Both the position numbers and the translations under genes were made by a program. Below are positions 124 to 45,587 of a stretch of DNA of 58,517 nucleotides, in pieces (position 1 is the first letter of the stretch; each line of letters starts with the position of its first letter). This DNA comes from a virus. Lineage: Duplodnaviria; Caudoviricetes. The stretch spans positions 1 through 58,517 of the IMG/VR virus record IMGVR_UViG_3300031746_000019; one strand, given 5' to 3'. The notes beneath the pieces are model-generated. The model searched no databases. It was given only the letters and a program-made list of their open reading frames with translations, and was not told the DNA's origin.

Positions 124-131
124 CTTATACC
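124..131 (-). promoter_or_regulatory. Candidate phage-specific promoter motif GGTATAAG
   Basis: The same 8-mer recurs at 18432, 26198 and 38099, with a variant at 491. All copies are intergenic, and four of the five lie upstream of minus-strand gene starts. Confidence 0.55.
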
Positions 132-18431: not shown

Positions 18432-18439
18432 CTTATACC
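18432..18439 (-). promoter_or_regulatory. Candidate phage promoter motif GGTATAAG for the replication arm
   Basis: Exact copy of the recurring motif, about 39 nt upstream of ATG 18393. Confidence 0.6.
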
Positions 18440-20006: not shown

Positions 20007-21116
<1,110 letters not shown>

Positions 21117-21989: not shown

Positions 21990-22960
21990 CAGCCATCTCT
22001 CCCCGATCGATGCTGGCGTTCGTTGACGAGCTTCAGAAGACTTCCGGAGTTCTCGACACGCTGGGACGGGCGGCTACGTCAACAGCAGGTATTTTACGTC
22101 CTGCATTGGCGGGAAGGTACGGACGGCAGCTATTGGTGGGTGCGGGGCTAGGAGCTGGAGGGAACATCCTCCAGCACAAGGTTCGTGGTGATCTCGATCA
22201 ACAGCGCGGTGGAGTTCTGGGGGCTGGACTTAGAGGGGCGGCGGCAGGAGGTGCAGTGGCTGGAGGTAGAATCTTGGCTACCTCTGAGGGTCGGAAGCGG
22301 GCACGTCAAGCCGCGAGCAACTTCTACGAGCGCGAGCTGTACGGTCTCACAGGCAAGGGGCGGGGTGATGCGCCCATGGATCTAGCCAAGGCGGAGCGCG
22401 TGGGTATTGTATCGGCTAATCCCACAGCTCAATCTATGTTGACTCGGGGCAGTGGGTCGTCTGGTCTGTCTGAGATAGGTCAGCATGGTCCTATTCAAGA
22501 AATGCACGGTCCCATGACACCAAAGCAATCTAAGGGTCTGGGAAAGCTTCTGAAGCAGCACGAAGCCAGTAAGGCGTTATTCGAGAAGGGTTGGGCATCT
22601 GCTCCGGGTGGTTTACACGGCATGGTCACGCACCCATTGGACTACGCCAAGCTCCGTTGGAACTCCATGGATGCTTGGGGCAAGGGCCTCACGGGGCTGG
22701 GTGTTGCAGGTGCTGCTCATGGTATGCTCAAGACGCCCTCGGAGGAGGACCCGAACAAGTACAAGAAGGGTCTGGGTCAGATGGCGGGGATGGTGGGCGG
22801 TGCGCTAGCTCCTGGGGCTGGTTGGATTGGACAGGGTCTCTTGGCTAGTGGGATCGGGAGTGTGGGCAAGGGGGTGGGAGCAGCAGCCGATATTGGAGTG
22901 CGTCGTTTGGGTAGAGTTGTCCCGCATGAGGAGCAGGCCCAGTGGCAGCCGACGCAATAG
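21986..22960 (+). CDS. Leader-family Gly/Ala-rich basic protein (324 aa)
   Basis: N-terminal AFVDELQKTS; several Gly-zipper-like hydrophobic segments. Confidence 0.65.
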   Translation: MTAISPRSMLAFVDELQKTSGVLDTLGRAATSTAGILRPALAGRYGRQLLVGAGLGAGGNILQHKVRGDLDQQRGGVLGAGLRGAAAGGAVAGGRILATSEGRKRARQAASNFYERELYGLTGKGRGDAPMDLAKAERVGIVSANPTAQSMLTRGSGSSGLSEIGQHGPIQEMHGPMTPKQSKGLGKLLKQHEASKALFEKGWASAPGGLHGMVTHPLDYAKLRWNSMDAWGKGLTGLGVAGAAHGMLKTPSEEDPNKYKKGLGQMAGMVGGALAPGAGWIGQGLLASGIGSVGKGVGAAADIGVRRLGRVVPHEEQAQWQPTQ

Positions 22961-24978
22961 TAGGCCAGAGTGCGATGCGCTTCTCCCCCATCCGGGGGAG
23001 GATGAGCGGGGCGGGAGATTGGGGACTTCAGTACCCCAGTCCGTTCTTCGATATCGCCCACACCTACATGCCGGCCACCGTGAAGATGATGTTCCGGTGG
23101 TGCCGGTACTACTTCCTCGTCAACCCACTGATCAATGCCGTCGTCTTCAAGATGTCGGAGTACCCCATCACCGACATCATCTTCGACTCTGACAGACCAG
23201 AGCTGAAGCGGCTGTGGGGAGACTACCTATTCGATCACCTTCGGTATCGTTCATTCCAGATCGAAGTCGGGCTGGACTACCACACCTACGGCAACGCCCT
23301 GGTCTCGATCTTCTATCCCTTTGTGAAGTACCTCGAGTGTCCGAACTGCAAGTTCCGGAAGCCAGCTAGGGAAGTGGAGTACCGCTTCCAGAACTTCCAG
23401 TTCATCTCCTCCTGCAAGTGTGGCCACCATGGCCCCTTCAAGGTGGACGATCACTACGTCAAGGCACCTCGTGGTATCCGTCTACTCCGGTGGAACCCGG
23501 AGGACGTGGACATCAGGTACAACGAGATCACTGGGGACTACGAGTACTACTATGAGATCCCCACGACCCTCAAGAACGACATCATCATGGGTAAGAAGAG
23601 CACGGTGGAATCTGTGCCGCAGCTCTTCATCGAGGCGCTGAAGCAGAAGAAGGCGGTGGTGTTCTCCAAGGAGAACATCTACCACTTCAAGCGCCCGACC
23701 CTGGCCGGGAAGGACCGAGGCTGGGGAACACCCATGATTCTTCCTGTTCTGAAGGACACCTTCTACCTTCAGATCTTGCGTAAAGCACAGGAAGCCATCG
23801 CGCTCGAGCACATCGTCCCTCTCCGCATTCTCTTCCCACAGGCTGGCAGCGCAACGAGTGATCCATACACGACGGTGAACCTCCAGGACTGGAGGGACCA
23901 GGTCGCTTCTGAGATCCGCAGGTGGAGAGCCGACAACAACTACATGCCCATCATGCCTCTCCCCATAGGGAACCAGACTATCGGAGGAGACGGTCGCGCA
24001 CTCCTGCTCAGTCAAGAAGTACGTGTGTGGAGTGAGCAGATCGTAGCTGGCATGGGCGTACCTACTGAGCTCATCTTCGGTGGGCTCAGCTACTCTGGCA
24101 GCAACGTGGCACTCAGGATGCTGGAGAACACCTTCCTGGGCTATCTCCAAGATCACATCTCCCTGCTCAAGTGGGTTGTCAAAAGGACGTCTGCGTATCT
24201 TGGTTGGGCCACGGTGCGTACGCGCTTCAAGCCCTTCAAGATGGCGGACGATCTCCAGAGGAAGGCATACCTCTTCCAGCTCAACTCTGCGTCCAAGATC
24301 TCGGACGAGAGTCTCCTTGCGGACGCGGACTACGATGCGGAGAAGGAAGACTCGATCATGGAGCGGGAGGCTGCTCGTAGAGCAGCCGTCTTGAAGAAGC
24401 AACAGCTTCTCCAGGCAGAGATTCAGGGAGAGGCCGCCATGATCCAGGCAAAGTGGCAGGGCAAGGGCCAGGCTCATCAGATGAAGGAGCAGATGGCGCT
24501 CCAGAACGAGATGGGGAAGGACCAGGCCGCTTTCCAAGCTCAGATACAGTCTGACATGCAACAGCAGCAGATGGCTGCTCAGCAGGGTGGCGAGCCTCCT
24601 CCTCCGAACCCAGACATGCAGGCCTCTCCTCGTAGGCCAGATCTTTTGGAGCCCCCGAAAGAGATCACATCTCCGCTGACTCTTCGCTCCGTTCAGCCTG
24701 TCCCTCCCTCTACCACGGGGGAAGATCTAGTGGGGAAGCAGAACGTAGACCTACTTTTGATGGGGCGGAAGATCGCAGATAAGATCAGTGGCCTCGATCA
24801 TTTCCAAAGACCCCAGGCTCTGGCCCAGCTCAAGCAGCACAACCCAGAGCTGCATGATGTGGTGTTGGGGCTAATGATGAGCGGGGGCAACGGCCCCACC
24901 CAGGCTGGGTCCGACGCCGCACGTCCTCTGCCGGAGCAGAAGCCCGCACGACGTGGACCCGAGTCTGCGCTCATCTAG
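22942..24978 (+). CDS. Portal protein (with zinc-ribbon insertion and Gln/Pro-rich C-terminal tail)
   Basis: Portal-like pattern 'YYFLVNPLINAVV', 'DYHTYGNALV', 'LRWNPEDV', 'IYHFKRP....GWGTP', 'IVAGMGVP..LIFG'; size and context fit. Confidence 0.7.
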   Translation: MAADAIVGQSAMRFSPIRGRMSGAGDWGLQYPSPFFDIAHTYMPATVKMMFRWCRYYFLVNPLINAVVFKMSEYPITDIIFDSDRPELKRLWGDYLFDHLRYRSFQIEVGLDYHTYGNALVSIFYPFVKYLECPNCKFRKPAREVEYRFQNFQFISSCKCGHHGPFKVDDHYVKAPRGIRLLRWNPEDVDIRYNEITGDYEYYYEIPTTLKNDIIMGKKSTVESVPQLFIEALKQKKAVVFSKENIYHFKRPTLAGKDRGWGTPMILPVLKDTFYLQILRKAQEAIALEHIVPLRILFPQAGSATSDPYTTVNLQDWRDQVASEIRRWRADNNYMPIMPLPIGNQTIGGDGRALLLSQEVRVWSEQIVAGMGVPTELIFGGLSYSGSNVALRMLENTFLGYLQDHISLLKWVVKRTSAYLGWATVRTRFKPFKMADDLQRKAYLFQLNSASKISDESLLADADYDAEKEDSIMEREAARRAAVLKKQQLLQAEIQGEAAMIQAKWQGKGQAHQMKEQMALQNEMGKDQAAFQAQIQSDMQQQQMAAQQGGEPPPPNPDMQASPRRPDLLEPPKEITSPLTLRSVQPVPPSTTGEDLVGKQNVDLLLMGRKIADKISGLDHFQRPQALAQLKQHNPELHDVVLGLMMSGGNGPTQAGSDAARPLPEQKPARRGPESALI

Positions 24979-25908: not shown

Positions 25909-26035
25909 TGTTGGGATGCTTTCGCGACCCCACTTCTCCGTCAGCCTGGAGGCTTCTGTGAATTGCAAAGGCCTCCGCAGCCATCTCCTCAAGGAAGACG
26001 GCCAGCGCGGCCAAGACGAAGATGTGAAGCAGCAC
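25901..26035 (-). CDS. Small protein with hydrophobic N-terminus (44 aa; MLLHIFVLAALAVFLEEMAAEAF...)
   Basis: TAGTG overlap with the upstream stop; its stop overlaps the next start; not in the ORF track. Confidence 0.45.
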   Translation of the reverse strand: MLLHIFVLAALAVFLEEMAAEAFAIHRSLQADGEVGSRKHPNNE

Positions 26036-26148
26036 TACTCCTCGTCGCCGTCGTTGTTGTCCGTGTCAGAGTCCTCGATCTCTCCGTCTACCATCTCCTC
26101 CAGATCTTCGAGACTCGATCCCGTATCTTCGGGTTCTTCAGGCGGCAT
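26035..26148 (-). CDS. Highly acidic 37-aa peptide (MPPEEPEDTGSSLEDLEEMVDGEIEDSDTDNNDGDEE)
   Basis: AAGGAG SD and ATG; first ORF after the GGTATAAG motif; not in the ORF track. Confidence 0.55.
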   Translation of the reverse strand: MPPEEPEDTGSSLEDLEEMVDGEIEDSDTDNNDGDEE

Positions 26149-26197: not shown

Positions 26198-26205
26198 CTT
26201 ATACC
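26198..26205 (-). promoter_or_regulatory. Candidate phage promoter motif GGTATAAG for the minus-strand island
   Basis: Exact motif copy about 50 nt upstream of ATG 26148. Confidence 0.6.
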
Positions 26206-26216
26206 CACGTTCGGGG

Positions 26217-26246
26217 TTGCTTGAGTGCCCATCGATCTGCTAGTTT
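26217..26246 (+). promoter_or_regulatory. Possible sigma70-like promoter for the RNAP gene
   Basis: TTGCTT-18 nt-TAGTTT with an extended -10 TGn. Confidence 0.35.
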
Positions 26247-26273: not shown

Positions 26274-29200
26274 ATGGCTCGTCTTTCACCCGAAGAGGGG
26301 TTCGAGCTCCTCAAGGAAAGGGTGACTAAAACAGTCGATGGCCTCTTCCCCATCGTTGGGAAGAAGCACACCCTCGAATTGAAGAATGTCAACGTCGTCG
26401 ACGATCTCCACATTGACGACATTCGATCTCAGAAAGATGCGAAGGTCAATGGCCGCACCTGGGCCGTGCCCGTGGAAGCTACGGTCGCGCTTAAGGACAA
26501 CGTGACAGGCAAGGTAGTTGATCAGCAGAAGCTGAAGCTGATGAGCCTGCCAAAGTACACTCGTCGCTACTCCCACATTGTGGACGGGCAAGAGTATCAG
26601 ATCGATAACCAGTGGCGACTGAAGTCTGGGGTGTACGCTAGAGTAAAGGACAATGGGGAGCTCCAGTCTCAGTTCAACTTGGCCAAGGGTCGTGGTTTCA
26701 ATCTCGGATTCGATCCCCAGTCACGTCAGTTCACGATGGAGTACGGAACATCCAACATTCCATTGCGCCCACTGTTGCGGGAGCTTGGTGTTGGACAGGA
26801 CGAGATCGAGTCCAGGTGGGGCAAGGATATCGCGGGAGCTAACCCACACACTTCCGACCAGGCCTTGCTGAAGTTCTACAAAGCGGCCACAGGAAAGAAG
26901 GCTGATAGCGTAGATCAAGCACGTCTGCATCTACACGAGACGCTCGCAGGTACGGCTCTACTGCCCGCAACAACACGCATCACGCTGGGCAAGGAATACA
27001 AGTCTGTCACCGCTCCAGCGCTCATGGATGCTGCCACCAAGCTGCTTCACATCTCTCAAGGAAAGGCTCAGCCAGACTCACGAGACTCGCTGATGTTCAA
27101 GGAGCTGCACTCGACTGAGGACTTCATGTCCGAGCGCATCCAACAACACAGCCGGGACATCATGCGTAAGATCCAGAACAACTTAGATCGAAAGACCAAG
27201 GTACGGGAGGTGGTGGGCCCCGACATCTTCCAGAAGCCAGTACGCACGATGTACCGCACCACGCTGGCCAACATCCCAGAGCAGACCAACCCGCTAGAAA
27301 TGATCTCTGGTCAGTTCAAGACCACCATCACCGGGGAGGGCGGCGTCAAGAGCGCACATAAGATCTCAGAGGAAGCCAAGCTAGTTGATCCATCCCACCT
27401 CGGGTTCCTTGACCCTATCCACACACCTGAAGGTCAGTCCACGGGTGTCACTCTTCGTCTTCCTCTTGGTGTGAAGAAGCAGGGTCATGACGTACTGATC
27501 CGCATGCACAACATCAAGACTGGGAAGATGGAAAGCCTGAATCCTGAGCAGGCGATGACTACCAGATTCGTACTGCCGGACCAGGTAGAGTGGAAAGGGA
27601 GCAAGCCAGTACCCACAGGGAAGAGTGTCAAGATCAGTGGGGTGGGTAATGAGATCGTCCAAGGCTCTCTGAAGGACGCGCAGTACATCATGAAGGACCC
27701 CCTTCAGATGTTCTCGATCGCATCCAATCTGATCCCATTCATGCCTGCTGATCACCCGAACCGAAGCACGATGGCCGGTAGGCATATGGAGCAGGCCATT
27801 CCTCTTGCCGCTCGACAGCAACCGCTAGTGCAGAGCCTGGCCGGGAAGTCTTCCTTCGATCGCATCGTCGGCACCTTCGCGGGACATGACTCCCGGCATG
27901 ATGGAGAGGTTGTAAAGATCAAGCCAGACGGCATCACCATCAAGACGGCTGGAGGAAAGCTGATCGAGCAACAGATCTACGACAACTTCCCTCTGAATGC
28001 AGACAAGGCGTTCTTGCATTCCACCCCGCTCGTGAAGGTGGGGGACAAGGTGAAGAAGGGCCAGCCGCTGGCTGATACCAACTTCACCAAGGGGGGAGTC
28101 CTTGCGTTGGGGACGAACCTCCGCGTCGGGTACATGCCCTACAAGGGGTACAACTACGAGGACGGAGTCGTCATCAGTGAATCGGCGGCGAAAGACCTGT
28201 CCAGCGAGCACCTGCATAGAGCATCGCTTACGATAGATCCCAAGACCCACATTCTGGACACTGAGAAGTTCCGCTCCTATGTTCCTCAGGCTATGACTCG
28301 GGAGCAGGTCCGGAAGCTAGATGACGGAGGCGTCATCAAGCCCGGTGAGGTGGTACTCCCCGGAGATACTCTGATCGCTGCGCTGCGCAAGCGGCAGGAG
28401 CGGATGGAGGACAAGGAGCTTGCCCGTCTTCACAAGTCCTTGGTGAAGCCTTACCTCGACTCCAGTGTGAAGTGGGAGTCTGACTATCCGGGGGTCGTCA
28501 CGGAGGTCATACGTAGAGGTAAGGAGGCGATGGTCCACATCAAGACGCTCGAGCCCGCTGAGATCGGTGACAAGCTGGCTGGCAGGCACGGCAACAAGGG
28601 CATCATCACCAAGATCATTCCAGATCTTGAGATGCCCGCCACCAAGGATGGAAGACCCGTTCACGTACTGATGAACCCCACTGGCATACCTGGTCGAGTG
28701 AACCTGGGTCAGGTGCTGGAGACTGCGGCTGGAAAGATCGCGGAGAAGACAGGCTCAACGTACTACATCAAGAACTTCACCCCCAACACGGACCTCCACG
28801 CCGTGGTCACCGCAGACCTGAAGAAGCATGGGATCTCAGACAAGGAGGTCGTGGTAGACCCCACCACAGGACAAGAGCTCGGCTCAATCCTGGTTGGGCC
28901 GCAACACATCATCAAGCTCAAGCACCAGGTGGAGAAGAAGCTCGTCTCCAGAGCTGGCGGTTCCGGGTACACCTACGATCGGAACCTCGTACCCAAGGGC
29001 GGCGGACCTCATGGTGCCCAAGCACTTGGTCAGCTGGGGCTTTACTCCATGCTTGCACATGGAGCGAAGGCGAACCTGCGCGAGATGCAGACGATCAAGA
29101 GTGATGCAGCCCAGAGTGATGAGTTCTGGGCCGCCCTACAGGCTGGCGAGCCACTGCCTGCTCCGCGTCCTACGTTCGCGTACAACAAGTTCATCGCGTA

Positions 29201-32200
29201 CCTGAATGTCCTCGGGCTGAACGCCAAGAAGGACGGGAACAATCTTCAGCTCATCCCATTCACGGATAAACAGATCTTGGAGATGAGCAATGGTGCCATC
29301 AAGGACGCCGGGAAGATGGTCCGGGCCAAAGACCTGAAGGAGGAGAAGGGCGGACTGTTCGACCCTCATGTGACGGGGGGACATGACGGGACGAAGTGGG
29401 CGCATCTAACGTTGCCGGAGGCGTTGCCGAATCCGCTCTTCGAACGTGCGATCCAATCGCTTGTGGGTGTCACGGGCAAGCAGTACGACGACATCATCGC
29501 TGGAAGATTGGCCGTAGATCCAACCAAGGGGACCCTGACGAATGATACAGAGCGTCACCTAACCGCAGGTAAGGCGTTCTCTCGACTCCTCCAAGGCATC
29601 GATGTACCTAAGCAGCTCGAGGCAGCCAAGAAGGCGTTGGATAATCCCAACCTCAAGGGCAACCGCCTAGATCAAGCCAGCAAGAAGGTTCGATACCTAT
29701 CGGCGCTACAGAACGCAGGGTTGACTCCTCATGAGGCGTACATGACCAAGTACATCCCGGTCATACCGCCCATCATGCGTCCTCTGTCACAACGGCCAGA
29801 CGGGGAGATCAATTACGACGACCTGAACCATATGTACAAAGGCATTGGTCTGTCAGCCAGTAGGCTGGAGGGTGCATCTCCCCTACTTCCACAGAGCGAG
29901 CTGCACGAGATTCGTGCTGACATCTACGATGGGATGCGCTCATTGACTGGACTGGGTGGCCACGCCAATCGAGAAGCACGTGGCGTGTTGGACATCATCC
30001 AGGGGCATCGACCGGAGCGTGAGGGAGGAAAGGGGACGGGTCAGAAAGTTGGAAGCCCGAAGGAGGGATACTTCCAGAAGAAGCTGACTCAGCGGAAGCA
30101 AGATCTCTCCATGCGCTCCACCATTATCCCCGAGCCGGGGATGGGACTGGACGAGGTAGGGCTCCCAAGGTCGGCGGCGATGGAGATCTACAAGCCCTTC
30201 GTCATCCGGGAGATCAGGGGACTCACCGGGGTGAGCCCACTCGAAGCGCAGAAGCAGATCAAAGAAGGCGGCCCACTGGTATCCAGGGCGCTCGAGCGGG
30301 TGATGGAAGCTCGCCCTGTGCTCTTGAAGCGAGACCCCGTACTTCACAAGTATGGTATCCAGGCGTTCAAGCCCAGGATCGTAGCGGGAAAGGCCGTCCA
30401 GATCCATCCCCTCGTCACGTCCGGATTCAATGCGGACTTCGACGGGGATGCCATGTCTGCCTTCGTCCCAGTAGGAACAGACGCGGTAAGTGAAGCGTAC
30501 AAGATGCTTCCTTCACGCAATCTGTATAGCCCATCAACGGGCGATCTGATGTACCGACCCACCCACGAGTCACAGCTCGGACTTTACGGCCTGACCACTG
30601 TCGGCACGAAGACAGGCAAATCATTCAAGACAGTACCTGAAATGGAAGAGGCGCTTCTCAAAGGTAGCCTGAAACACAACGATCAGGTGAAGGTGGGCGC
30701 CTTCTCTTCCACTGCTGGTAGGTTTCTACTCTCCGCAGCATTGCCGGAAGCCATGCGAGCGGACTTCCTCAAGGGCAAGGAGCCGCTAGACGGAGGTGGG
30801 CAAGGCCGTCTACTCGAGCAGCTAGCCAAAGACCACCGGAATGACTACGGCATCGTCGTGAACAAGCTGAAGGACCTTGGGAACCGATGGTCCACCCAGT
30901 CCGCTTTCAGCATTGGAATGGAGGACACGAAGCCCGAGAGGGAACTGAGGGATTTAGTCTTGGACAAGGCCCATGCGGAGGTAGCACAGATCAAAGCCAA
31001 GACTCCTCATGAACGTGACGCCAAAGCCATACAGATCTATGGCAAGGCAACCCAGGAGTTGCAGAAGCAACTCAAGGCACTCCCCGATTCCCGAAGCAAC
31101 CTGTTCGTCATGTCCAGGGCTGGCATCAAGCCTGGAGACGATGCTCTCCGACAGATCAAAGTTGCCCCGATGTTGATCGCCAATGCCAAGGGCGAGACCA
31201 TCCCGCACCCTGTCACGAAGTCCTACTCGGAGGGGTTGGACATCGCTGACTACTGGACCTCCATGTCTGGGGCACGCAAAGGGATCATTCAGAAGGTGCA
31301 GCAGGTTCAGAAGCCTGGGTATATCTCCAAGCAGGTCATGAACTCGGTGATGGACAACATCATCGTCGATGATGACTGTGGTACCACGAAGGGCATCGCG
31401 CTGCATGTGGATGAGAAGGACATTTTAGACAGGCATCTTGCTGCGGACGTGAAGGTAGGCAAAAAGATCATCCCAGCCGGGACCCTAGTCACGCCAGATA
31501 TCCGGAGCACGCTTCGCAACAACAAGGTGGGGAGGGTTATGGTCCGCTCACCTCTTCGTTGCCAGCATGGTCCTGGGATCTGCAAGAAGTGTTTCGGTTT
31601 GACAGAAGATGGCAGGCATCCGGAGGCAGGCACCAACGTAGGAGTGATGGCGGGACAAGCATTGGGGGAGCGCGCCACACAGCTTGCGATGAAAGCGTTT
31701 CACACGGGGGGCACTGCTGCATCCAAGGAAGGTCTCGTGGATGAGTTTGAGCGGGTGCAGAACCTACTTCTCTTCCCGAAGACGCTGCCTGGATCTGCTA
31801 CGCTAAGTACCATGAGCGGGCGAGTGGAGAAGGTAGAGAAGGACCCAGCTGGAGGGCACAGTGTCTACATTGGGGGGCAGAGGCACTACGTCCCACAGAG
31901 TCGCGGTATCCCCGCCATTGAAGGGGAGATACTCAAGCGTGGGACTGAGGTGAAGAAGGGGGCCCCGATCTCTGGTGGTCCGATCAATCCCCACGAGATG
32001 CTACCTCTTACAGGTATCGAGCCGGTGCAGGGGTACCTAGCGGGGGAACTGCACAAGATCTATGGAGCGCACGGTATCCGCCGTAGGAACACGGAGGTTG
32101 TGGTAAAAGCGTTGACGAACCTCACCAAGATCGATGACCCTGGCAGTCATGGTGGGTTCATTCGCGGAGACTTTGCCCCGACATCTCTGGTCGCGAACAT

Positions 32201-32444
32201 CAACAGGCAGATGCCCAAGACGGGTAAGCCTGTGCTACACCAGCCTGTGCTCCGTGGTGTCAACGTCCTTCCTCTTGACATGCAGGAGGATTGGATCGCC
32301 AGAATGAATCACCAGAACATCACGAAGACTGTCACCGAGGCGGCGCAAGAGGGATGGACATCGAAGATGCACGGCAAGCATCCAATCCCACCTGTTGTGT
32401 ACGGGGCGGAGTTTGGCAAGGGCCCCAAGCACTGGGAGTACTGA
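26274..32444 (+). CDS. DNA-directed RNA polymerase, fused beta and beta' subunits (2056 aa), probably virion-associated
   Basis: Beta motifs TPEG, GYNYEDG, GDKLAGRHGNKG, NPTGIPGRVNLGQ, KLKHQ. Beta' motifs GLFDP, IPVIPP..RP, LKRDPVLH, NADFDGD (30429-30449), RSPLRC..IC..CFG, GERATQLAMKAFHTGG. Confidence 0.95.
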   Translation: MARLSPEEGFELLKERVTKTVDGLFPIVGKKHTLELKNVNVVDDLHIDDIRSQKDAKVNGRTWAVPVEATVALKDNVTGKVVDQQKLKLMSLPKYTRRYSHIVDGQEYQIDNQWRLKSGVYARVKDNGELQSQFNLAKGRGFNLGFDPQSRQFTMEYGTSNIPLRPLLRELGVGQDEIESRWGKDIAGANPHTSDQALLKFYKAATGKKADSVDQARLHLHETLAGTALLPATTRITLGKEYKSVTAPALMDAATKLLHISQGKAQPDSRDSLMFKELHSTEDFMSERIQQHSRDIMRKIQNNLDRKTKVREVVGPDIFQKPVRTMYRTTLANIPEQTNPLEMISGQFKTTITGEGGVKSAHKISEEAKLVDPSHLGFLDPIHTPEGQSTGVTLRLPLGVKKQGHDVLIRMHNIKTGKMESLNPEQAMTTRFVLPDQVEWKGSKPVPTGKSVKISGVGNEIVQGSLKDAQYIMKDPLQMFSIASNLIPFMPADHPNRSTMAGRHMEQAIPLAARQQPLVQSLAGKSSFDRIVGTFAGHDSRHDGEVVKIKPDGITIKTAGGKLIEQQIYDNFPLNADKAFLHSTPLVKVGDKVKKGQPLADTNFTKGGVLALGTNLRVGYMPYKGYNYEDGVVISESAAKDLSSEHLHRASLTIDPKTHILDTEKFRSYVPQAMTREQVRKLDDGGVIKPGEVVLPGDTLIAALRKRQERMEDKELARLHKSLVKPYLDSSVKWESDYPGVVTEVIRRGKEAMVHIKTLEPAEIGDKLAGRHGNKGIITKIIPDLEMPATKDGRPVHVLMNPTGIPGRVNLGQVLETAAGKIAEKTGSTYYIKNFTPNTDLHAVVTADLKKHGISDKEVVVDPTTGQELGSILVGPQHIIKLKHQVEKKLVSRAGGSGYTYDRNLVPKGGGPHGAQALGQLGLYSMLAHGAKANLREMQTIKSDAAQSDEFWAALQAGEPLPAPRPTFAYNKFIAYLNVLGLNAKKDGNNLQLIPFTDKQILEMSNGAIKDAGKMVRAKDLKEEKGGLFDPHVTGGHDGTKWAHLTLPEALPNPLFERAIQSLVGVTGKQYDDIIAGRLAVDPTKGTLTNDTERHLTAGKAFSRLLQGIDVPKQLEAAKKALDNPNLKGNRLDQASKKVRYLSALQNAGLTPHEAYMTKYIPVIPPIMRPLSQRPDGEINYDDLNHMYKGIGLSASRLEGASPLLPQSELHEIRADIYDGMRSLTGLGGHANREARGVLDIIQGHRPEREGGKGTGQKVGSPKEGYFQKKLTQRKQDLSMRSTIIPEPGMGLDEVGLPRSAAMEIYKPFVIREIRGLTGVSPLEAQKQIKEGGPLVSRALERVMEARPVLLKRDPVLHKYGIQAFKPRIVAGKAVQIHPLVTSGFNADFDGDAMSAFVPVGTDAVSEAYKMLPSRNLYSPSTGDLMYRPTHESQLGLYGLTTVGTKTGKSFKTVPEMEEALLKGSLKHNDQVKVGAFSSTAGRFLLSAALPEAMRADFLKGKEPLDGGGQGRLLEQLAKDHRNDYGIVVNKLKDLGNRWSTQSAFSIGMEDTKPERELRDLVLDKAHAEVAQIKAKTPHERDAKAIQIYGKATQELQKQLKALPDSRSNLFVMSRAGIKPGDDALRQIKVAPMLIANAKGETIPHPVTKSYSEGLDIADYWTSMSGARKGIIQKVQQVQKPGYISKQVMNSVMDNIIVDDDCGTTKGIALHVDEKDILDRHLAADVKVGKKIIPAGTLVTPDIRSTLRNNKVGRVMVRSPLRCQHGPGICKKCFGLTEDGRHPEAGTNVGVMAGQALGERATQLAMKAFHTGGTAASKEGLVDEFERVQNLLLFPKTLPGSATLSTMSGRVEKVEKDPAGGHSVYIGGQRHYVPQSRGIPAIEGEILKRGTEVKKGAPISGGPINPHEMLPLTGIEPVQGYLAGELHKIYGAHGIRRRNTEVVVKALTNLTKIDDPGSHGGFIRGDFAPTSLVANINRQMPKTGKPVLHQPVLRGVNVLPLDMQEDWIARMNHQNITKTVTEAAQEGWTSKMHGKHPIPPVVYGAEFGKGPKHWEY

Positions 32445-32445
32445 C

Positions 32446-32796
32446 GTGAACGTGATCACGGAGACTGCTTTTCTAGACGAGCTGGAGAAGATTGCTCTCC
32501 CCGGTTTTTTGGGAGGGCTAGCTAAGGGTTGGGGGGCTGCCGGTAGCAGCATGAAGCGTACAGGAATGGGCATGGGTACTGCCTTGAAGAGTGCCCCCAA
32601 TGTCTGGAAAGAAAGCGGTAACATAGCGAACAGCCTCGGCGCGAAAGAGAAAGGACTCGGCGCTTTCGCCCTCGGCGCCAGAGTCGGCGGCGTTGGCAGA
32701 ATGGTAGCCAAGCCAGCAGCGATTGCTGGTGGTGGTCTTTACGCCGGACACAAATTGTTGGGTGGGCAGCAACCACAGCAACAGCAGAGGTACTGA
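32446..32796 (+). CDS. Leader-family small Gly-rich basic protein (116 aa)
   Basis: GTG start with a GGGAG SD; AFLDELEKIA leader. Confidence 0.65.
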   Translation: MNVITETAFLDELEKIALPGFLGGLAKGWGAAGSSMKRTGMGMGTALKSAPNVWKESGNIANSLGAKEKGLGAFALGARVGGVGRMVAKPAAIAGGGLYAGHKLLGGQQPQQQQRY

Positions 32797-32797
32797 C

Positions 32798-33193
32798 ATG
32801 GATAAGGTAGCAATGATGGAAGCGGCGTTCTTGGATGAGCTTGAGAAGATCGGTGTGGACTGGGGCGGGCTTGGGAAGACCCTGAGTGGCTGGGGGAGCA
32901 AGAACGTCCTTGGCTCCACCCTGGGTACGCACGCCAAGCGCTTCGCCGTCGGTGCTGTTCCCGGCGTGGTTGCTGGGGCTGCTGCTGGTGGACCGGGCCA
33001 TCGCCTGAGTGGAGCTGTGAAGGGCGGAGTGGTAGGCGGGGCCACTGGTGTAGCAGGAGGGGCTCTCCTCCAGCGCCGAGCCGCCAACCTAGCCAAGGGT
33101 ACCAAGGGGCTTAGTGCTTTTGAAGGTCCGCTACGCCCGGATGTGTCGCAGCAGGTTTCCAACATCAGTGGTCAGACACTACCGGGGATCTAG
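32798..33193 (+). CDS. Leader-family small Gly-rich basic protein (131 aa)
   Basis: MDKVAMMEAAFLDELEKIG; Gly-zipper segments. Confidence 0.65.
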   Translation: MDKVAMMEAAFLDELEKIGVDWGGLGKTLSGWGSKNVLGSTLGTHAKRFAVGAVPGVVAGAAAGGPGHRLSGAVKGGVVGGATGVAGGALLQRRAANLAKGTKGLSAFEGPLRPDVSQQVSNISGQTLPGI

Positions 33194-33194
33194 G

Positions 33195-34478
33195 TTGGCA
33201 GATACCTTCTCCAATTCCAAGGCCACACGTGGCACAGGTGCCGCCGTTATTGAGACGGGCGTGATCGCCAACGTCAACGTTCGCAACATGACGGTGGACT
33301 GGGTCTCTCAGTACAGTGGCAAACAGATCACAGACCTCCAGGTGATGGCCCCCTACTTCCACTACAACAACGGGGAGGGTTTCACCTGCGTGCCTGAAGT
33401 GGGGGCGATCTGTTGCGTATGCTTCCCTTCTGATCAAGATTCCCCCTTCGTCATAGGATTTCTTGGTGGGCCAGAGCTCGAGGGGGCCGGGGTTGATAAA
33501 TACCTTGACGAAAAGCTGACCGACCCTGGCGTGGAGACTTCCACGGATATCACCCCTGGACAGACCACTTCGTCTGGGGGATCGACGGAGCCTGCGGAGA
33601 CCACCAACCCTACAAATGCCAGCTTCCGTGGTGGCAGGCCCATCCTGAACCCTGGAGACATGTACTGGCAGGGTCGGGATGAGAACTTTGTCATCCTGCG
33701 GCGGGGTGGTGTACTTCAGATTGGCGCCACCAACATCTGCCAGCGGGCCTACATTCCTCTCCTGAACTACATCCGGGACTTCAGTGAGAACTACGAGCTC
33801 AACACCGCAGCGGGCAGTCTGAACTGGTCAGTCCAGCGGCAGGAGAATGATCCAGAAGGGAACGCCCCGACCGAGTTCGTACTTACGACACGTGAGTTCG
33901 CTCAAGACAAGAAGGCATCAATCAAGCTCAGCATCGGCTCTCTAGAAGAGGCCGAGAAGCCACCAGGTGGCGACAAGACCTTCATTGAGCTGGTGATAGC
34001 ACCCCAGAAAATCAAGCCTGACACAGGTGAGGTAGAGGGGACCCCTGTCTACGTAGTCCGGCTGGACAAGGCCGGCAACTCCTACGTTATGCAGGCCAAG
34101 GACCGGACGGAAGAGATCAAGGGCAGCCTCACGACTACAATTTCTGGTTCTCGCACGACGAAGATTCAGGGTAGCGACACCACCAACATCACGGGTGATT
34201 CGGATATTAAGATTGGTGGAGTGAGTAAGGAGCAGGGATCTGTGAGCCAAGAGACTTGGTCCACATCCAAAGTGATCTCTGCCCCCCAATTACTACTTGG
34301 TGGGGCAGGTGCTTCCGAGCCAGCCGTACTTGGGCTAAAATTGGCAGCATGGCTGGCTGGCCACACGCACATGGTAAAAGCAATGCCTGACCCAGGTGGT
34401 GGTACGATACCAACACTGCCTCCAGTACAGGCAGCAGGCACCAAGGACTTGATCAGTAAGTCCATAAAGGTTCTCTAG
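33195..34478 (+). CDS. Baseplate central spike protein (gpV/gp5-like)
   Basis: N-terminal OB-fold-like 'GVIANVN...VPEVGAICCVCF...PFVIGF'; beta-helix-like repeats (..I.GS.TT.I.G); HTH metal-binding apex near the C-terminus. TTG start 1 nt after the previous stop. Confidence 0.65.
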   Translation: MADTFSNSKATRGTGAAVIETGVIANVNVRNMTVDWVSQYSGKQITDLQVMAPYFHYNNGEGFTCVPEVGAICCVCFPSDQDSPFVIGFLGGPELEGAGVDKYLDEKLTDPGVETSTDITPGQTTSSGGSTEPAETTNPTNASFRGGRPILNPGDMYWQGRDENFVILRRGGVLQIGATNICQRAYIPLLNYIRDFSENYELNTAAGSLNWSVQRQENDPEGNAPTEFVLTTREFAQDKKASIKLSIGSLEEAEKPPGGDKTFIELVIAPQKIKPDTGEVEGTPVYVVRLDKAGNSYVMQAKDRTEEIKGSLTTTISGSRTTKIQGSDTTNITGDSDIKIGGVSKEQGSVSQETWSTSKVISAPQLLLGGAGASEPAVLGLKLAAWLAGHTHMVKAMPDPGGGTIPTLPPVQAAGTKDLISKSIKVL

Positions 34479-37393: not shown

Positions 37394-37922
37394 GACAGTG
37401 GCAAAGAAGAAGCCGTTCTGGATGAGTGACGAGGAGTGGCAGCAGCGTGGACTGCCCGCGATGCCGAACTCTGAAGAGAACATGGCGGGGGCAGTCCAGA
37501 AGGGTGTCCCCGAGCTGAACTGGGTGGAGTGCAAGAGCATCATCGGAGCTTGGGTAGAGAAGGACGGGCTTCTTCTCTACCACTTCTACATGAGAGATCG
37601 GAAGCAGATCTTTGATGATGCTCAGAAGAGGATGGACGTCACCCGGGACATGGCTGCCCCAGGCATCATTCAGAGCGAGCAGCAGCGGATCTCTGCTGAG
37701 GCCAATGAGGCTCTTGAGAAGCATCCCTGGCCACCAGCCTTCAAGGATCTACTGGAGCGCGTCATCAAGGACTGCTTCCGATACCAGACCTTCAAGATCG
37801 ACTACTACCTCGAGGTGGACAGCTGGTCTGTGGCCATGCCCGCGCTCGAGACTCCGACGAAGTGGACGGCCGATCAATACGCCCAGCCCATCAAGAGGCT
37901 AGCAGATCAGCTTCAGAGCTAA
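37386..37922 (+). CDS. Hypothetical protein (178 aa)
   Basis: Start reassigned to MVETVAKK with a GGAGG SD. Confidence 0.6.
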   Translation: MVETVAKKKPFWMSDEEWQQRGLPAMPNSEENMAGAVQKGVPELNWVECKSIIGAWVEKDGLLLYHFYMRDRKQIFDDAQKRMDVTRDMAAPGIIQSEQQRISAEANEALEKHPWPPAFKDLLERVIKDCFRYQTFKIDYYLEVDSWSVAMPALETPTKWTADQYAQPIKRLADQLQS

Positions 37923-37924
37923 GT

Positions 37925-38095
37925 GAGGTCCGGCTTTCGCCGGACGACACACCGCTCTCGAGAGATCTGTGGGCGCTACCATGGCCGGCACACAGTAGTG
38001 TCCGCAGATCTCTCTAGCTGGGCGAGGAGATTGGGAGCGACTACGGACGCGCCGGCAATGAGTCCACGTTCTGTAGCCAGTTGACGGGACTCTGT
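37925..38095. ncRNA. Candidate structured non-coding RNA (three hairpins)
   Basis: Hairpins at 37928-37945, 37960-38014 (20-bp stem) and 38039-38078; two loops contain GCCGGC; a minus-strand GGTATAAG motif at 38106-38099 points into the region. Confidence 0.45.
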
Positions 38096-38098
38096 ACT

Positions 38099-38106
38099 CT
38101 TATACC
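38099..38106 (-). promoter_or_regulatory. Candidate phage promoter motif GGTATAAG
   Basis: Exact motif copy; shares a nearby TGTACT (plus strand) with the copy at 124-131. Confidence 0.5.
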
Positions 38107-38111
38107 TTTGA

Positions 38112-39950
38112 GTGAGCGGGGTTTCAGTGGCAGTCATCAGCCTGGCAGAAGCGGCCATACTCAAAGAAGCGAAGCTCATCCCCCTCTCTTGGTCCATCGA
38201 CCGGGGAAACTCTGAACCCTGGTTCGACTACGATGAGGAGGGCAACCCCACAGACTACGGGTTTGACTCCGAGCCGGAAGATCCAACCATCGAAGATCTG
38301 ATGGGCCTGGATGCATCCAAGTTCATATATGACATCAAGCCATCCCAATTCGCTGAGACTTCGATCCGTATCCCCGAGGCGGGGAGGATCGCAGACTTCA
38401 AGTTCGAGGGGCGTGACTACCTCCGGCGGATCTACGACACCAGTGCGGACAAGGTACTACTGAAGTGCGGACGTCAGGTTGAGAAGTCGACCACCTTGGG
38501 AAACAGGCTGCTCTGCTATTCCGCCCTGACCAACAACTTCCGATCCCTCTTCGTTGCTCCCTCTGCTGAACAAGCCAAGGTATTCTCGGTAGACCGTATC
38601 AAGGACGTCATCGAGAGCTCGCCACTCTTGAAGGCGTACACCACTACCAAGATCAACCAGGCGGTGTTCTTCAAGAAGTTCATCAACTTCTCACAGATCA
38701 GACTCCGCTATGCGTACCTCACGGCTGACCGAGTTCGTGGTATCCCAGCAGATCTGATCTGCATCGACGAGCTACAGGACATTCTCGTAGACAACATCCC
38801 GATCATCGAGCAGTGCGCCTTCCACTCTCACTACAAGCTCTTCATATACTCGGGCACCCCAAAGTCTGAGGACAACACGCTCGAGCACTACTGGCAGGAG
38901 TTCTCCACTCAGAATGAGTGGGTAGTTCCGTGTGATAGGCACGGCACGCCAAACAATCCCTCGTCTTGGCACTGGAACATCTTGGGGGAGAAGAACATCG
39001 GTAAGAAAGGATTGATCTGCGACCAGTGTAAGGAACCCATCAGCGCAGCTCATCCGATGGCTCGATGGGCCTCGATGAATCCCAGGTCGGAGAACAATGT
39101 AGAGAAGGTAACCTTCGAGGGCTATCGCATCCCCCAAATCATGGTCCCCTGGGTGGACTGGGTAGAAATCTTGGAAGCACAGGAGCACTACCCTCGCGCT
39201 CAGTTTATGAACGAGAAGCTCGGGCTATCCTACGACTCCGGGAATCGGCCCATCACGAAGGCTCAGCTTGAGGCTTGCTGCCGACCACACATTCGTCTCA
39301 CTGACATCGAGAACTTCCGCCGCCTGGCACAAGGCCGACCCATCTACGCTGGCATAGATTGGGGCACGGGAGAGCGGTCGTACACAGTGATCGCTCTCGG
39401 TGGGTACTTTGGATCGACCAACTTTTCCATCTTCTACGTTCATCGGTTTACCGGACCCGACCTCGAGCCAGATCGGCAGCTGGACCTCATCTCCCAAATG
39501 ATCACGCAGTTACAGGTACAGGTCATTGGCTGTGACTACGGCGGTGGCTTCCACAACAACAAGACCCTCATCCAGAGGTTCGGGGCAAACAAGGTCATCA
39601 AGTACCAGTACAACCCCAGGCAGAAGAAAAAGATCTACTGGGAGCCCAATCTCCAGCGGTACATGTGCCAACGCTCCGAAGTGATGAGTGACATGTTCTC
39701 CGCTCTCAAGAAGAAGCTGATCGATCTACCTTGCTGGGATGACTTCAGGGAACCTCACGGCCAAGACGTGCTCAACATCTTTAGTGAGTACAACAATCGC
39801 CTGAGGATGGAGGAGTTCAAGCATGCGCCGGGAAAGACAGACGATACGTTTCACGCCATCCTCTACTGTTTGCTCGCTTCGATGATCCAGCATCCGCGCC
39901 CCGATATCATCCAGGCGATCAAGGACACTGGTATGGGCAGGGGTACCTAG
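38112..39950 (+). CDS. terL: Terminase large subunit (GpA-like)
   Basis: Walker A-like KCGRQVEKST, 'RVRGIPADLICIDE' Walker B, SGTP motif III, nuclease motifs AGIDWG and DDTFHA; exact start uncertain. Confidence 0.9.
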   Translation: MSGVSVAVISLAEAAILKEAKLIPLSWSIDRGNSEPWFDYDEEGNPTDYGFDSEPEDPTIEDLMGLDASKFIYDIKPSQFAETSIRIPEAGRIADFKFEGRDYLRRIYDTSADKVLLKCGRQVEKSTTLGNRLLCYSALTNNFRSLFVAPSAEQAKVFSVDRIKDVIESSPLLKAYTTTKINQAVFFKKFINFSQIRLRYAYLTADRVRGIPADLICIDELQDILVDNIPIIEQCAFHSHYKLFIYSGTPKSEDNTLEHYWQEFSTQNEWVVPCDRHGTPNNPSSWHWNILGEKNIGKKGLICDQCKEPISAAHPMARWASMNPRSENNVEKVTFEGYRIPQIMVPWVDWVEILEAQEHYPRAQFMNEKLGLSYDSGNRPITKAQLEACCRPHIRLTDIENFRRLAQGRPIYAGIDWGTGERSYTVIALGGYFGSTNFSIFYVHRFTGPDLEPDRQLDLISQMITQLQVQVIGCDYGGGFHNNKTLIQRFGANKVIKYQYNPRQKKKIYWEPNLQRYMCQRSEVMSDMFSALKKKLIDLPCWDDFREPHGQDVLNIFSEYNNRLRMEEFKHAPGKTDDTFHAILYCLLASMIQHPRPDIIQAIKDTGMGRGT

Positions 39951-41790: not shown

Positions 41791-42465
41791 ATGAACCCAG
41801 TCGAAGAGTTCCTCGAGCTACAGAAGCAAGCGAACTGGCTTGGTGACTTCGGCAGGGCTCTGGTTGGTCATGGCCCGGGACAGGGAGGTTCCGCCTCGAC
41901 TGCTGCGCAGCTCTTTCAGGCTCCCCTTGCCGCCGCTGCGATAGCGGGTACTGGGCTAGGGATCAGCAAGGGCGTGGGAGCGATCAGAGAGCATTTTGGT
42001 AAGGCTCGGGACTTCCAGAGGATGGTTGAGGAGAACCCATCGCTTCAGAAGGAAGACGCCCGGCACGTCCAGATGCTCTACAACTCTCTGCGTCGCCTCT
42101 CTCCCACGATGGCCAAAGATCCTCTTCTGGCTGGCTCATTCGTACGAGACTCAATCCGCTTCGGACCCGAAGGAGGTCCAGCCGTAGCTCCAAGTACGGC
42201 TAAGATGCTTGCGGATACAGAGAAGGGTGTGGCCGGGGCTGGGAAGAGACATCCAATTCTCGATCTCCTGGGCGGTGTGGGCCGTATAATGCCTCCGCAA
42301 CAGAAACACGAGCTCCCACCGCAGCTAGTAGGACATATCGAAACTCGACGTAATCTCCCAGGGCGCTCTGGAACAATTAGCGCAAAGCAGAACGTATACG
42401 ATCCAGCCGAATGGAACCGCATGTCGGCCGCCGCCGCCGGGGTAGCAGGCCAAACTAACCCATGA
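41791..42465 (+). CDS. Leader-like virion protein (224 aa)
   Basis: MNPVEEFLELQKQA followed by a Gly/Ala hydrophobic segment. Confidence 0.6.
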   Translation: MNPVEEFLELQKQANWLGDFGRALVGHGPGQGGSASTAAQLFQAPLAAAAIAGTGLGISKGVGAIREHFGKARDFQRMVEENPSLQKEDARHVQMLYNSLRRLSPTMAKDPLLAGSFVRDSIRFGPEGGPAVAPSTAKMLADTEKGVAGAGKRHPILDLLGGVGRIMPPQQKHELPPQLVGHIETRRNLPGRSGTISAKQNVYDPAEWNRMSAAAAGVAGQTNP

Positions 42466-45400: not shown

Positions 45401-45587
45401 CAAGGCCATGCAGGGGAACAGAGAGCCAGTGGGACCGATTACAGACCTGATCGCGGAATATCCGAAGATCCTGATGGTCTTGGCCGGTCTCGGTGCATTG
45501 CACCAGCAAGGTTCGTCAATCCCACGTAGACTCGTGGGGAGCTTGGGTGGCTTCGTGAAGGATCCGCTCGGGCCAGGGAAAAGCTAA
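42462..45587 (+). CDS. Prohead maturation protease (HK97/assemblin-like fold) with intein and long C-terminal extension
   Basis: N.NGDYF, 'HHVNKD....GRV', VSMG|C (putative catalytic Ser), 'FFDISFV..GAD.TA'; lies upstream of scaffold-like genes and the MCP. Confidence 0.7.
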   Translation: MIVKVCQFHARSEQGERLVEVFHPGDMEKAAAFFDMEKRGAPLLPEVQRYLQNLKPNPNKIYVLVNALGAGEYWGSNINGDYFPEGSLIHTGPVYGYETFYQAHPYKHHVNKDPSRSFGRVELSVWHDGMKRVELVVRIDRDLAARFGAQDVCDKIDHGMFPDVSMGCLPEGSPVFRADGRRVPIETIKEGDSVLTHKGRPRRVTSVMARPHKGSIYHVKAYGHRDALVLTGEHPLWLIRQEQMECRPSPKTVNRGRKQHVCTPDSSHSKMGCAGCSTSPQYQFEWVRTDEACEGDYLAIPVPNYKTNIRFTADQARLLGYYLSEGLVLRTKAGTPMAVQFCTNLWEIQTHAELYQLGERLGLNVTEYDAEDRNGKYISIWDRSLAELCSQHCGEKALTKRLSSDLISADVETLLLLLGAYANGDGGCYKGSLYFSTASEELSEQLRLVLARCGMIASVNELVHKPSKLVPKETVEFQVWVGTDTAWKLTTAHVPFGKSDRLCSKRFFYTYEGVTYLVTPIESVEETPYDGDVYNFGVEEDESYQVEGLAVHNCKVPYDICSVCTDWAKYRDAQATYEPSRHKSAGAAVLEFHRKNPIRGISVTRNDYCTHLKNQLNKILEDGRKVYAINDYPRFFDISFVFIGADKTAKVMAKLASGADCVPSWYVAEQMGYDMPLMEKEFEKAAVAGGLIDDLLQGARARYSPDALNTKKIVKLVTKAKERMDAPPPIKKEGSVASVRALLREKRASHKKGAEITKDVVPSQFGGKAVPVDRNTPDLPNEILDRLGKGPLEEALSTPSSLGMLLRPREFQRITIISIGRKDLADKMDEEGKVFPPTSDRDASLPMGGEHISDVIKKLLLPFLEDRSYLEPVAKRRMARSAGESSKAPQVEKVKRAAVETPFLRKISAAYNGYLDRAIGCFKYAAEAVNNDPELWEAVFHSGLADGFEKQAEEKVNPAVVLGAIGGGWALSEYARRQRSKAMQGNREPVGPITDLIAEYPKILMVLAGLGALHQQGSSIPRRLVGSLGGFVKDPLGPGKS
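42963..44120 (+). mobile_element. Intein (386 aa) with in-frame LAGLIDADG homing endonuclease
   Basis: Starts CLPEG; block B LTGEHP; LLGYYLSEG and LLGAYANGDG motifs; ends VYNFGVEEDESY...AVHN followed by +1 Cys. Confidence 0.92.

Follow-up and report, generated by a model that had tools for sequence, protein, structure and literature searches.

A virus record of 58,517 bp from IMG/VR (IMGVR_UViG_3300031746_000019; analysed whole and here called the window) carries one gene, encoding the 2056-amino-acid (aa) protein P0001, where RNA polymerase beta and beta' subunits are joined into one polypeptide whose catalytic elements and second zinc site are intact by domain matches and alignment. That P0001 is an RNA polymerase beta-beta' protein is practically certain. 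The window itself is a fragment (CheckV completeness of 32%) of a genome of ~170–190 kb (about 180 kb). Taken as a whole, the data are best explained, in our moderately confident view, by P0001 being the only polymerase catalytic core of an uncultured sediment tailed phage, where it would be partnered by a sigma factor and delivered by the virion.

An earlier note on this DNA had described a single open reading frame (ORF) with beta motifs followed by beta' motifs and a junction near position 29230, and both points were borne out. The frame is intact and preceded by a ribosome-binding site (AGGAG, 8 nucleotides (nt) 5′ of the ATG), and Pfam matches run from beta (Rpb2_3 at residues 336–396; Rpb2_6 at residues 577–896, E-value of 4e-61) to beta' (Rpb1_2 at 1340–1412, Rpb1_3 at 1416–1552 and Rpb1_5 at 1654–1960), with an additional Rpb1_1 match (1125–1198) that stayed under the Pfam cut-off. 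The solved structures that matched best were bacterial beta' chains (E-value of 2e-103). In an alignment with Salmonella and Acinetobacter beta+beta', for which we used bacterial contigs filed in the phage collection by mistake, Salmonella beta ended and Salmonella beta' began at residue 988/989 of P0001 (i.e., …LNAKKDG/NNLQLIPFTDKQ…, with …LGLNAKKDG as the fuller left side), which places the junction precisely at nt 29237/29238. The beta module keeps the GRHGNKG motif (residues 770–776) and a flap-tip-like helix (residues 710–724), and the catalytic NADFDGD motif and C-terminal zinc site are likewise retained, as the note had stated (Table 1). The clamp coiled coil is shorter than the bacterial one, and most of the basic residues of its first helix have been replaced.

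The chain is 693 aa shorter than the enterobacterial pair (2056 aa vs. 1342+1407 = 2749 aa), in line with the ~700 aa that had been estimated against E. coli. The largest gaps lie opposite beta 220–359, beta 933–1047 and beta' 944–1190, i.e., proteobacterial lineage-specific insertions that we take to be those usually named SI1–SI3, and such insertions explain about half of the length difference. Compared with Staphylococcus, ~280 aa are missing (counting blocks of at least 8 aa), among them ~90 aa of the beta lobe, the 32-aa zinc ribbon, ~47 aa around beta' 535–596 and the C-terminal 23 aa of beta'. The description of the enzyme as streamlined therefore holds for its overall length and much less for its own losses: because only ~280 aa are gone relative to Staphylococcus, the true lineage-specific losses appear modest, and the zinc ribbon looks to be the most telling of them. 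Its deletion, which agrees with the reported absence of the N-terminal beta' Cys cluster, is a 25-aa gap opposite Salmonella beta' 64–88, where all four Cys are found, and recurs in each of the 13 aligned phage sequences, among which are those of Salmonella phage Arash and Vibrio phage D69.

The suggestion that the family itself might not be new proved right, with hundreds of relatives in databases and several in cultured phages. A first IMG/VR scan yielded 28 close loci (43–75% identity), all with one open frame; 12 of these were complete at 2052–2167 aa, nine reached 2501–3596 aa by virtue of inserts, and seven were cut by a contig end. A profile scan of IMG/VR then returned at least 589 stretches and at least 524 confirmed relatives, from which 79 loci were kept: 56 single-chain, 11 cut at about residue 1475 as in Arash, two split elsewhere and ten cut by a contig end. 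In a collection of 5.8 billion proteins, the best 120 hits (on contigs of up to 199 kb) all carried Pfam domains of both subunits on a single chain. Likewise, the best 150 matches of the beta' half among 1.84 billion representatives (50% clustering) all had E-values of at most 7e-189, and 116 of them measured 1921–4739 aa; all were family members, hence this search provided no outgroup. Within the family, identity falls to ~35%, and megablast of the polymerase gene against the phage collection gave no match. P0001 is thus a further member of a known, barely characterised kind of polymerase. Two loci show breaks at other places, i.e., a stop at the beta/beta' boundary in L112, where the subunits may be unfused, and a single stop within beta (at about residue 730) in L119; a true split, recoding or a sequencing error are the candidate explanations.

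Of the phages with a name, Vibrio phages D69, D181 and D148 (31% identity at 99% coverage) and Salmonella phage Arash (33.5% identity, residues 25–1475; OQ632216.1, PMC10585845) are nearest to P0001. All four share its beta-beta' junction and read AADYDGD where P0001 has the catalytic NADFDGD. In these four phages, beta' is cut at about P0001 residue 1475, whereas it is undivided in the window and in three long uncultured relatives (G001, G002 and G005); the Arash-type split gives a 1525-aa ORF (Arash gp206) followed by a 606-aa ORF (gp216). Since the intervening content differs from phage to phage (4.8 kb in Arash, 0.6 kb with small ORFs in D69, and a gene for a homing endonuclease in D181 and D148), the split seems to have arisen through insertion into an undivided gene. 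In a tree of beta' halves, Arash and D69 fall in an unresolved polytomy with undivided forms, so that the tree leaves the order of split and undivided forms open.

In the mechanism that we propose, the covalent link between beta and beta', possibly together with lineage-specific changes, would take over the assembly role of alpha and omega, neither of which the lineage appears to encode. Promoter recognition would be provided by a phage sigma70-family factor of ~255 aa (an orthologue of Arash gp10, with its gene outside the window), which would dock on the clamp helices, kept though diverged. The resulting holoenzyme would read a lineage-wide promoter of the approximate form TGAAA-N15-GGTATAAG, heading leftward operons of replication and small genes. 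The polymerase would be made along with virion proteins, from its gene between portal and spike, and polymerase and sigma would then be carried in the particle, be delivered with the DNA and start transcription. The fullest version of this scheme, i.e., an alpha- and omega-free machine of two proteins that is packaged and injected, has its own GGTATAAG promoter class (G for T) and makes early and replication genes independent of the host polymerase across Salmonella, Vibrio and sediment hosts, is put forward tentatively, at somewhat less than even confidence.

Virion carriage of the polymerase is plausible, and gene order and comparison with Arash make us lean towards it. The gene does lie among virion genes, as previously proposed: the left 18 kb of the window form a leftward replication module (Cas4-like exonuclease, UvsX-like recombinase, DNA polymerase A, primase, DnaB-type helicase and another helicase), virion genes run rightward from 18.4 kb, and the polymerase gene has the portal gene upstream and a spike-like gene and TerL downstream. 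A portal homologue was present 5′ of the polymerase in 10 of the 11 related loci (with portal identities of 31–82%) and a spike-like homologue 3′ of it in nine of these 11; the Arash and D69 loci examined yielded no homologue of the spike-like gene of the window. In Arash and D69 the polymerase gene follows the portal gene as well, and in Arash the genes for portal, gp205 and gp206 overlap end to end. All five records inspected (G001, G002, G005, Arash and D69) contain one polymerase set. Moreover, the G002 sigma gene belongs to a rightward block and neighbours the gene of a collagen-like tail fibre, and the Arash gp10 gene sits among structural genes. It is this portal-polymerase-spike order, together with the single polymerase set, the location of sigma among tail genes and replication promoters that seem unsuited to host sigma70, that favours virion carriage. 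According to the accessible part of the Arash paper, the virion preparation yielded 3516 spectra for gp206 (the most of all proteins), 1210 for gp216 and 467 for the sigma factor gp10 (PMC10585845). These spectra are only suggestive of packaging because the same list comprises 116 proteins, among them metabolic enzymes such as ribonucleotide reductases and kinases.

The alternative that survives best keeps the sigma dependence but places the polymerase outside the particle: it would be made during infection, at first from promoters read by the host polymerase, would take over middle and late transcription, and its detection in Arash would be contamination. A number of observations weigh against our account, several of them in favour of this alternative. 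Apart from the length and content of the Arash list, its authors themselves offer carry-over of abundant proteins from infected cells as an explanation, as stated in the accessible part of their paper (PMC10585845). P0001 bears no extra N- or C-terminal domain fit for capsid targeting or ejection. In the window, three small leftward ORFs form a cassette between portal and polymerase, and the polymerase gene has an upstream box and a terminator-like hairpin of its own; because of cassette, box and hairpin, the timing of the polymerase need not follow that of the portal. Other phages, such as Cobetia phage Carin-5, have separate beta and beta' genes near genes for DNA metabolism and sigma. Furthermore, the window lacks a sigma gene, host alpha could be recruited, and a host polymerase carrying the phage sigma fits the GGTATAAG data (see below) equally well. 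The 13 sequencing runs that contained the stretch were all sediment-metagenome DNA, with no RNA run among them (X1–X4 cover it almost completely), and the beta' tree was a quick search with long branches that included six bacteria only and left archaea out. The non-virion alternative nevertheless has to contend with the post-portal placement that is kept at widely differing portal identities, the end-to-end overlap in Arash, gp206 heading the spectral counts with the sigma orthologue also detected, the G002 sigma gene among tail genes and the single polymerase set per genome, and we consider it a serious but unlikely explanation.

Signals for transcription of the polymerase gene itself were also sought in the window. 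The conserved box GATCTGCTAGTTT upstream of it, of which the window holds one exact copy, is possibly the promoter or leader of the polymerase gene, as far as its conservation indicates. The box GATCTGSTAGNTT is not a repeat within the window: it gave 12 matches (allowing at most two mismatches) vs. 7.2 expected, a number reached by seven of 100 shuffles. A scan for consensus sigma70 promoters around the polymerase gene returned two sites vs. 4.2 expected, and a search for shared 7-mers upstream of 22 rightward genes, aimed at late promoters, found only words resembling ribosome-binding sites.

The earlier note had seen no alpha, omega or sigma gene in the window and had supposed that the enzyme may work without alpha or sigma. 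In the window, Sigma70_r2, r3 and r4 and the alpha N-domain indeed gave no match at an E-value of at most 1 (no search for omega was made there). However, because the window covers only ~32% of the genome, the absence of sigma from it says little, and the conclusion that the polymerase needs no sigma is probably an artefact of the partial genome. Three of the five long relatives (G001, G002 and G005) encode a conserved sigma70-family protein of 254–260 aa, as revealed by Pfam-family scans, with Sigma70_r3 above the Pfam cut-off in all three (29.7–35.3 bits vs. 25.3) and weak r2 and r4 matches. This protein also matches PHROG 351 ('RNA polymerase sigma factor') and is orthologous to Arash gp10 (E-values of 3e-27 to 6e-31). 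In these three relatives its gene is located 54–104 kb from that of the polymerase, vs. the 26 kb covered by the window on each side of the polymerase. Database searches returned 172 members of the sigma family, and at least eight of the contigs concerned (including G004, a fourth of the five long relatives) are equal in length to polymerase-bearing ones.

Sigma binding was examined further by complex prediction, in which residues 1000–1420 of the G001 polymerase and its own sigma factor scored 0.73 vs. 0.00 for the best control, passing a mark that was reached by 58 of 80 solved complexes and by 2 of 110 mismatched pairs. Contact agreement between runs was at least 51%, the predicted local distance difference test score (pLDDT) of the partner was at least 72, and the predicted interface joined clamp helices 1175–1218 with sigma residues 70–89. 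Since such a pair is a textbook case, likeness to solved holoenzymes may account for the pass. Taken together, the polymerase probably depends on a phage sigma factor. A self-sufficient chain that finds its promoters without sigma or any other initiation factor, like YonO or T7-type enzymes, would agree with the lack of a sigma gene in the window, the lost zinc ribbon and the replaced basic residues of the first clamp helix, but is very improbable given that the window spans about one third of the genome, that a conserved sigma70-family factor co-occurs with the polymerase (on at least eight contigs), that the clamp helices and flap-tip helix are kept, and that sigma docking was predicted with clean controls. 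As to the remaining subunits, domains of alpha and omega were found in none of the five records searched (G001, G002, G005, Arash and D69, two of them complete genomes), with positive controls detected in 14 of 14 genomes; the notion that the enzyme works without alpha is compatible with these data. Arash and D69 encode a second sigma (gp196 and D69_0246, respectively; 42% mutual identity, with Sigma70_r2 at 39 bits in gp196) that is distinct from gp10, and no counterpart of it was present among the sigma-domain hits in G001, G002 and G005.

The box GGTATAAG occurs four times in the window vs. 0.29 times expected (with a maximum of two in 100 simulations), and all four copies are leftward and intergenic. 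In 94 kb of Arash it was found 19 times vs. 1.7 expected; 18 of these copies were leftward, and behind each of the 18, within 2–59 nt, an ORF of at least 30 codons could start, commonly in the context GGTATAAG-taaaGTGTAaac-AGGAG-ATG. G002 (168 kb) contains 28 copies vs. 6.6 expected, on both strands, many of them preceded by TGAAAAT at ~15 nt and closely followed by a ribosome-binding site and ATG, and D69 (31 kb) has five copies of the variant GTTATAAG vs. 1.7 expected, all leftward. Most of the 15 relatives compared have conserved non-coding boxes 5′ of the polymerase in common with the window, and one of these boxes is GGTATAAG on the lower strand. The word CTTATACC was considered as a rightward promoter for the polymerase and rejected, as the Arash and G002 contexts put the functional strand opposite; a CTTATA box within 300 nt 5′ of the polymerase was not universal either (13 of 54 single-chain loci).

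The box resembles an extended –10 box with a G at its last position. Sigma70 promoters almost always have a T there. Boxes of this type are kept across phages of Salmonella, Vibrio and sediment hosts, and we infer that GGTATAAG is the cognate promoter of the phage sigma and polymerase, driving non-structural genes. The word 'promoter' is absent from the Arash paper (PMC10585845).

P0001 is far removed from the bacterial enzymes with which it was compared, and is not a recent capture as judged from identity and tree. Over ~1960 aligned columns, it shares 26.3–27.1% identity with the beta+beta' of Staphylococcus, Enterococcus and Salmonella, vs. 56.8% between Staphylococcus and Salmonella. In a quick maximum likelihood tree of 43 beta' halves, the six bacteria (two Firmicutes, two Gammaproteobacteria and two delta/myxobacterial metagenome-assembled genomes (MAGs)) fell on one side and all phage rows on the other, with a Shimodaira–Hasegawa-like approximate likelihood ratio test (SH-aLRT) value of 100. 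Three MAG contigs with a phage copy offered a further comparison: the MAGs' own beta' is 60–62% identical to that of Salmonella, vs. 33–38% for the phage copy, counting best segments only. Natural rpoB-rpoC fusions of some bacteria and an engineered E. coli fusion have the same order as P0001, with the C-terminus of beta linked to the N-terminus of beta'; such fusion enzymes continue to work with alpha, omega and host sigma, and are ordinary members of their bacterial clades. That a host rpoB-rpoC pair was captured recently and fused after transfer, a recent capture being one of the outcomes that the earlier note had named as refuting, can draw on such fusions and on the bacterial beta' chains heading the structure matches, but is highly improbable in the face of an identity of 26–27% to all bacteria compared (57% between phyla), the separate bacterial clade, the distance between the MAGs' own and phage copies and the divergence inside the family.

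Some sequences were set aside in these comparisons. The tree position of Cobetia phage Carin-5 beta' was discarded on account of a branch of length 10. Among the hits in the phage collection, H8 and H10 were rejected as phage relatives since their annotation is that of bacterial rplKAJL-rpoBC contigs, as were H5 and H6, which have bacterial-type beta- and beta'-sized ORFs in records marked UNVERIFIED_ORG; all four served as bacterial references. In this respect, four records filed as phage are wholly or partly bacterial chromosome, i.e., AFYI01000006.1 and CAKLQH020000005.1 (with rplKAJL-rpoBC annotation) and OR846602.1 and OR844998.1 (with bacterial-type beta and beta' ORFs, marked UNVERIFIED_ORG), corresponding to loci L038, L039, L054 and L055.

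Among known systems, Arash and D69 come closest to the window. Besides the junction, the zinc-ribbon loss and the place behind the portal, they share with its uncultured relatives the single polymerase set per genome, and with the window the GGTATAAG boxes (in D69 the variant GTTATAAG); the gp10-type sigma of Arash has a counterpart in the relatives, with no match in the window itself, which is 32% of a genome.

Arash, D69 and their like, with the window, likely are the mReC lineage, which was described as 97 contigs of tailed phages from metagenomes, encoding beta and beta' of the COG0085/COG0086 type, in the accessible part of Weinheimer and Aylward 2020 (PMC7481178). As described there, mReC polymerases branch apart from cellular clades, as P0001 does with respect to six bacteria, with archaea left out. 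A fused relative of 2044 aa (L097; 35% identity) stems from metagenome 3300017989, the source of the mReC1 and mReC3 representatives. In the accessible text, mReC phages have a Gp23-type capsid (PF07068; capsid genes in only 8 of 97 contigs) and a PF03237 terminase (PMC7481178). In contrast, the capsid protein of the window lacks a Pfam match, and its terminase matches PF05876 best, with PF03237 at 19.5 bits (cut-off of 22). The same accessible text applies 'fused' or 'fusion' to crAssphage alone and leaves sigma, virions and promoters unmentioned (PMC7481178). A literature search that did not cover subscription journals found nothing on the beta-beta' fusion, sigma partner or promoter of the lineage. 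Among the searchable papers, and as far as their accessible text goes, the lineage has been treated only by phylogeny (mReC) or by annotation plus a mass-spectrometry list (Arash).

The phiKZ/AR9-type polymerases are also of the beta/beta' type, lack alpha and omega, and have one set packaged in the virion (PMC7598289, PMC7824862). They differ from the window's system by consisting of four to five polypeptides, by having two paralogous sets and no sigma70-type factor, and by being too diverged for easy placement (PMC7598289, PMC7824862), whereas P0001 is one chain with strong Pfam matches, and its relatives have one set and a sigma70-family partner. The polymerases of crAss-like phages (gp66), YonO and the tape-measure-fused P23-45 enzyme carry both barrels on one polypeptide, as P0001 does, and the crAss-like and P23-45 enzymes are virion-borne, according to the accessible parts of the sources. 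All these enzymes are highly diverged and have no recognisable beta/beta' domain set, only the DxDGD barrel being recognisable in the crAss-like gp66/YonO type, as far as the accessible text describes it (PMC7481178), whereas P0001 has the full domain set and aligns to bacterial beta+beta' over ~1960 columns.

If the proposed account is true, this would be the simplest known RNA polymerase system of the bacterial type, with one catalytic chain and one sigma factor and with hundreds of natural variants. It would provide a direct test of the need for alpha, omega and the beta' zinc ribbon, as well as a compact orthogonal transcription module, and would mean that a polymerase of near-cellular type can be delivered by virions, beyond the diverged enzymes of N4, crAss-like phages and phiKZ. 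Assembly without alpha, the sigma partner, GGTATAAG promoters and virion delivery can all be tested in a cultured relative, Salmonella phage Arash.

Table 1. Coordinates of the polymerase gene, its parts and other features in the window
Feature	Position	Strand	Remarks
Single-chain beta-beta' RNA polymerase gene (P0001, 2056 aa)	26274..32444	+	ATG start, uninterrupted frame
Beta module, residues 1–988	26274..29237	+	Pfam, alignment
Beta' module, residues 989–2056	29238..32441	+	Pfam, alignment
Deletion site of the beta' N-terminal zinc ribbon, residues 1027–1047 at GLFDPHVTGGHDGTKWAHLTL	29352..29414	+	Alignment
Clamp helices, shortened, residues 1174–1231; expected sigma docking site	29793..29966	+	Alignment
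Catalytic NADFDGD, residues 1386–1392	30429..30449	+	Alignment, sequence
C-terminal (second) zinc site with its four Cys retained, residues 1699–1775 (DDDCGT ... LRCQHGPGICKKC)	31368..31598	+	Alignment, sequence
Segment GERATQLAMKAFHTGG, which we take to be the trigger loop; proteobacterial SI3 insertion absent	31665..31712	+	Alignment
Conserved box GATCTGCTAGTTT, then ACACATAGGAG (ribosome-binding site)	26234..26246	+	Kept upstream in most of 15 relatives compared
Terminator-like hairpin and T-run, 40 nt past the polymerase stop	32484..32510	+	Consensus scan
GGTATAAG box near the left record end	124..131	-	
GGTATAAG box heading the leftward replication module	18432..18439	-	
GGTATAAG box directed away from the polymerase gene, before the 37-aa ORF and two leftward ORFs	26198..26205	-	
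GGTATAAG box directed left into a 178-nt structured non-coding stretch	38099..38106	-	
Very acidic 37-aa ORF with ribosome-binding site, directly behind a GGTATAAG box	26035-26148	-	ATG at 26148
Two conserved leftward ORFs after the 37-aa ORF	25992-25435 and 25433-24975	-	
Tail-fibre-like gene, collagen triple-helix repeats	20007-21116	+	
Portal	22942..24978	+	Weak PHROG match; 33% identity over ~495 aa to Arash gp204 and D69_0259, E-values of 1e-90 to 1e-96
Spike-like gene, T4 gp5 C-terminal repeat	33114..34478	+	Weak, below Pfam cut-off
TerL	38112-39950	+	
1041-aa virion-module protein with intein-like insert	42462-45587	+	Hint and LAGLIDADG matches, residues ~167–553
Capsid protein	49095-50216		No Pfam match

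The extra length of the long polymerase relatives (eight of nine mapped) consists of in-frame inserts at six sites, i.e., at about P0001 residues 387, 775, 943, 1392 (within NADFDGD), 1772 and 1811. LAGLIDADG endonuclease matches were obtained in all six inserts scanned (two of them weak) and intein-splicing matches in two (one weak), and the inserts are, on these domain matches, inteins. They measure 340–520 aa and were seen in L010, L015/L029, L016, L021, L023, L024 and L030; L024 (3596 aa) carries four, and the copy in the window none. Elsewhere in the window, the flanks of the intein-like insert in the 1041-aa virion-module protein are homologous to a D69 protein (L003:23374-23718).

Scans of the window with Rfam (gathering threshold) and for tRNAs returned none. 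Between the GGTATAAG box in front of TerL and a conserved hairpin, the stretch 37915-38092 (lower strand) contains no convincing ORF but folds at –80.8 kcal/mol (z of –4.8; none of 200 shuffles as good), without an Rfam match, and is a candidate small RNA. Box and hairpin recur 5′ of TerL in L012, L014 and L028.

Fused polymerases of 45–49% identity are also present in L040 (CAZNAX010000001.1; 173,992 bp, i.e., phage-sized), L041 and L042, the contigs of which were binned into Desulfatibacillum, Deltaproteobacteria and Myxococcales MAGs, giving a weak hint of the host. Finally, near-perfect tandem copies of a unit of ~27 nt lie in the DNA just 5′ of position 21120.

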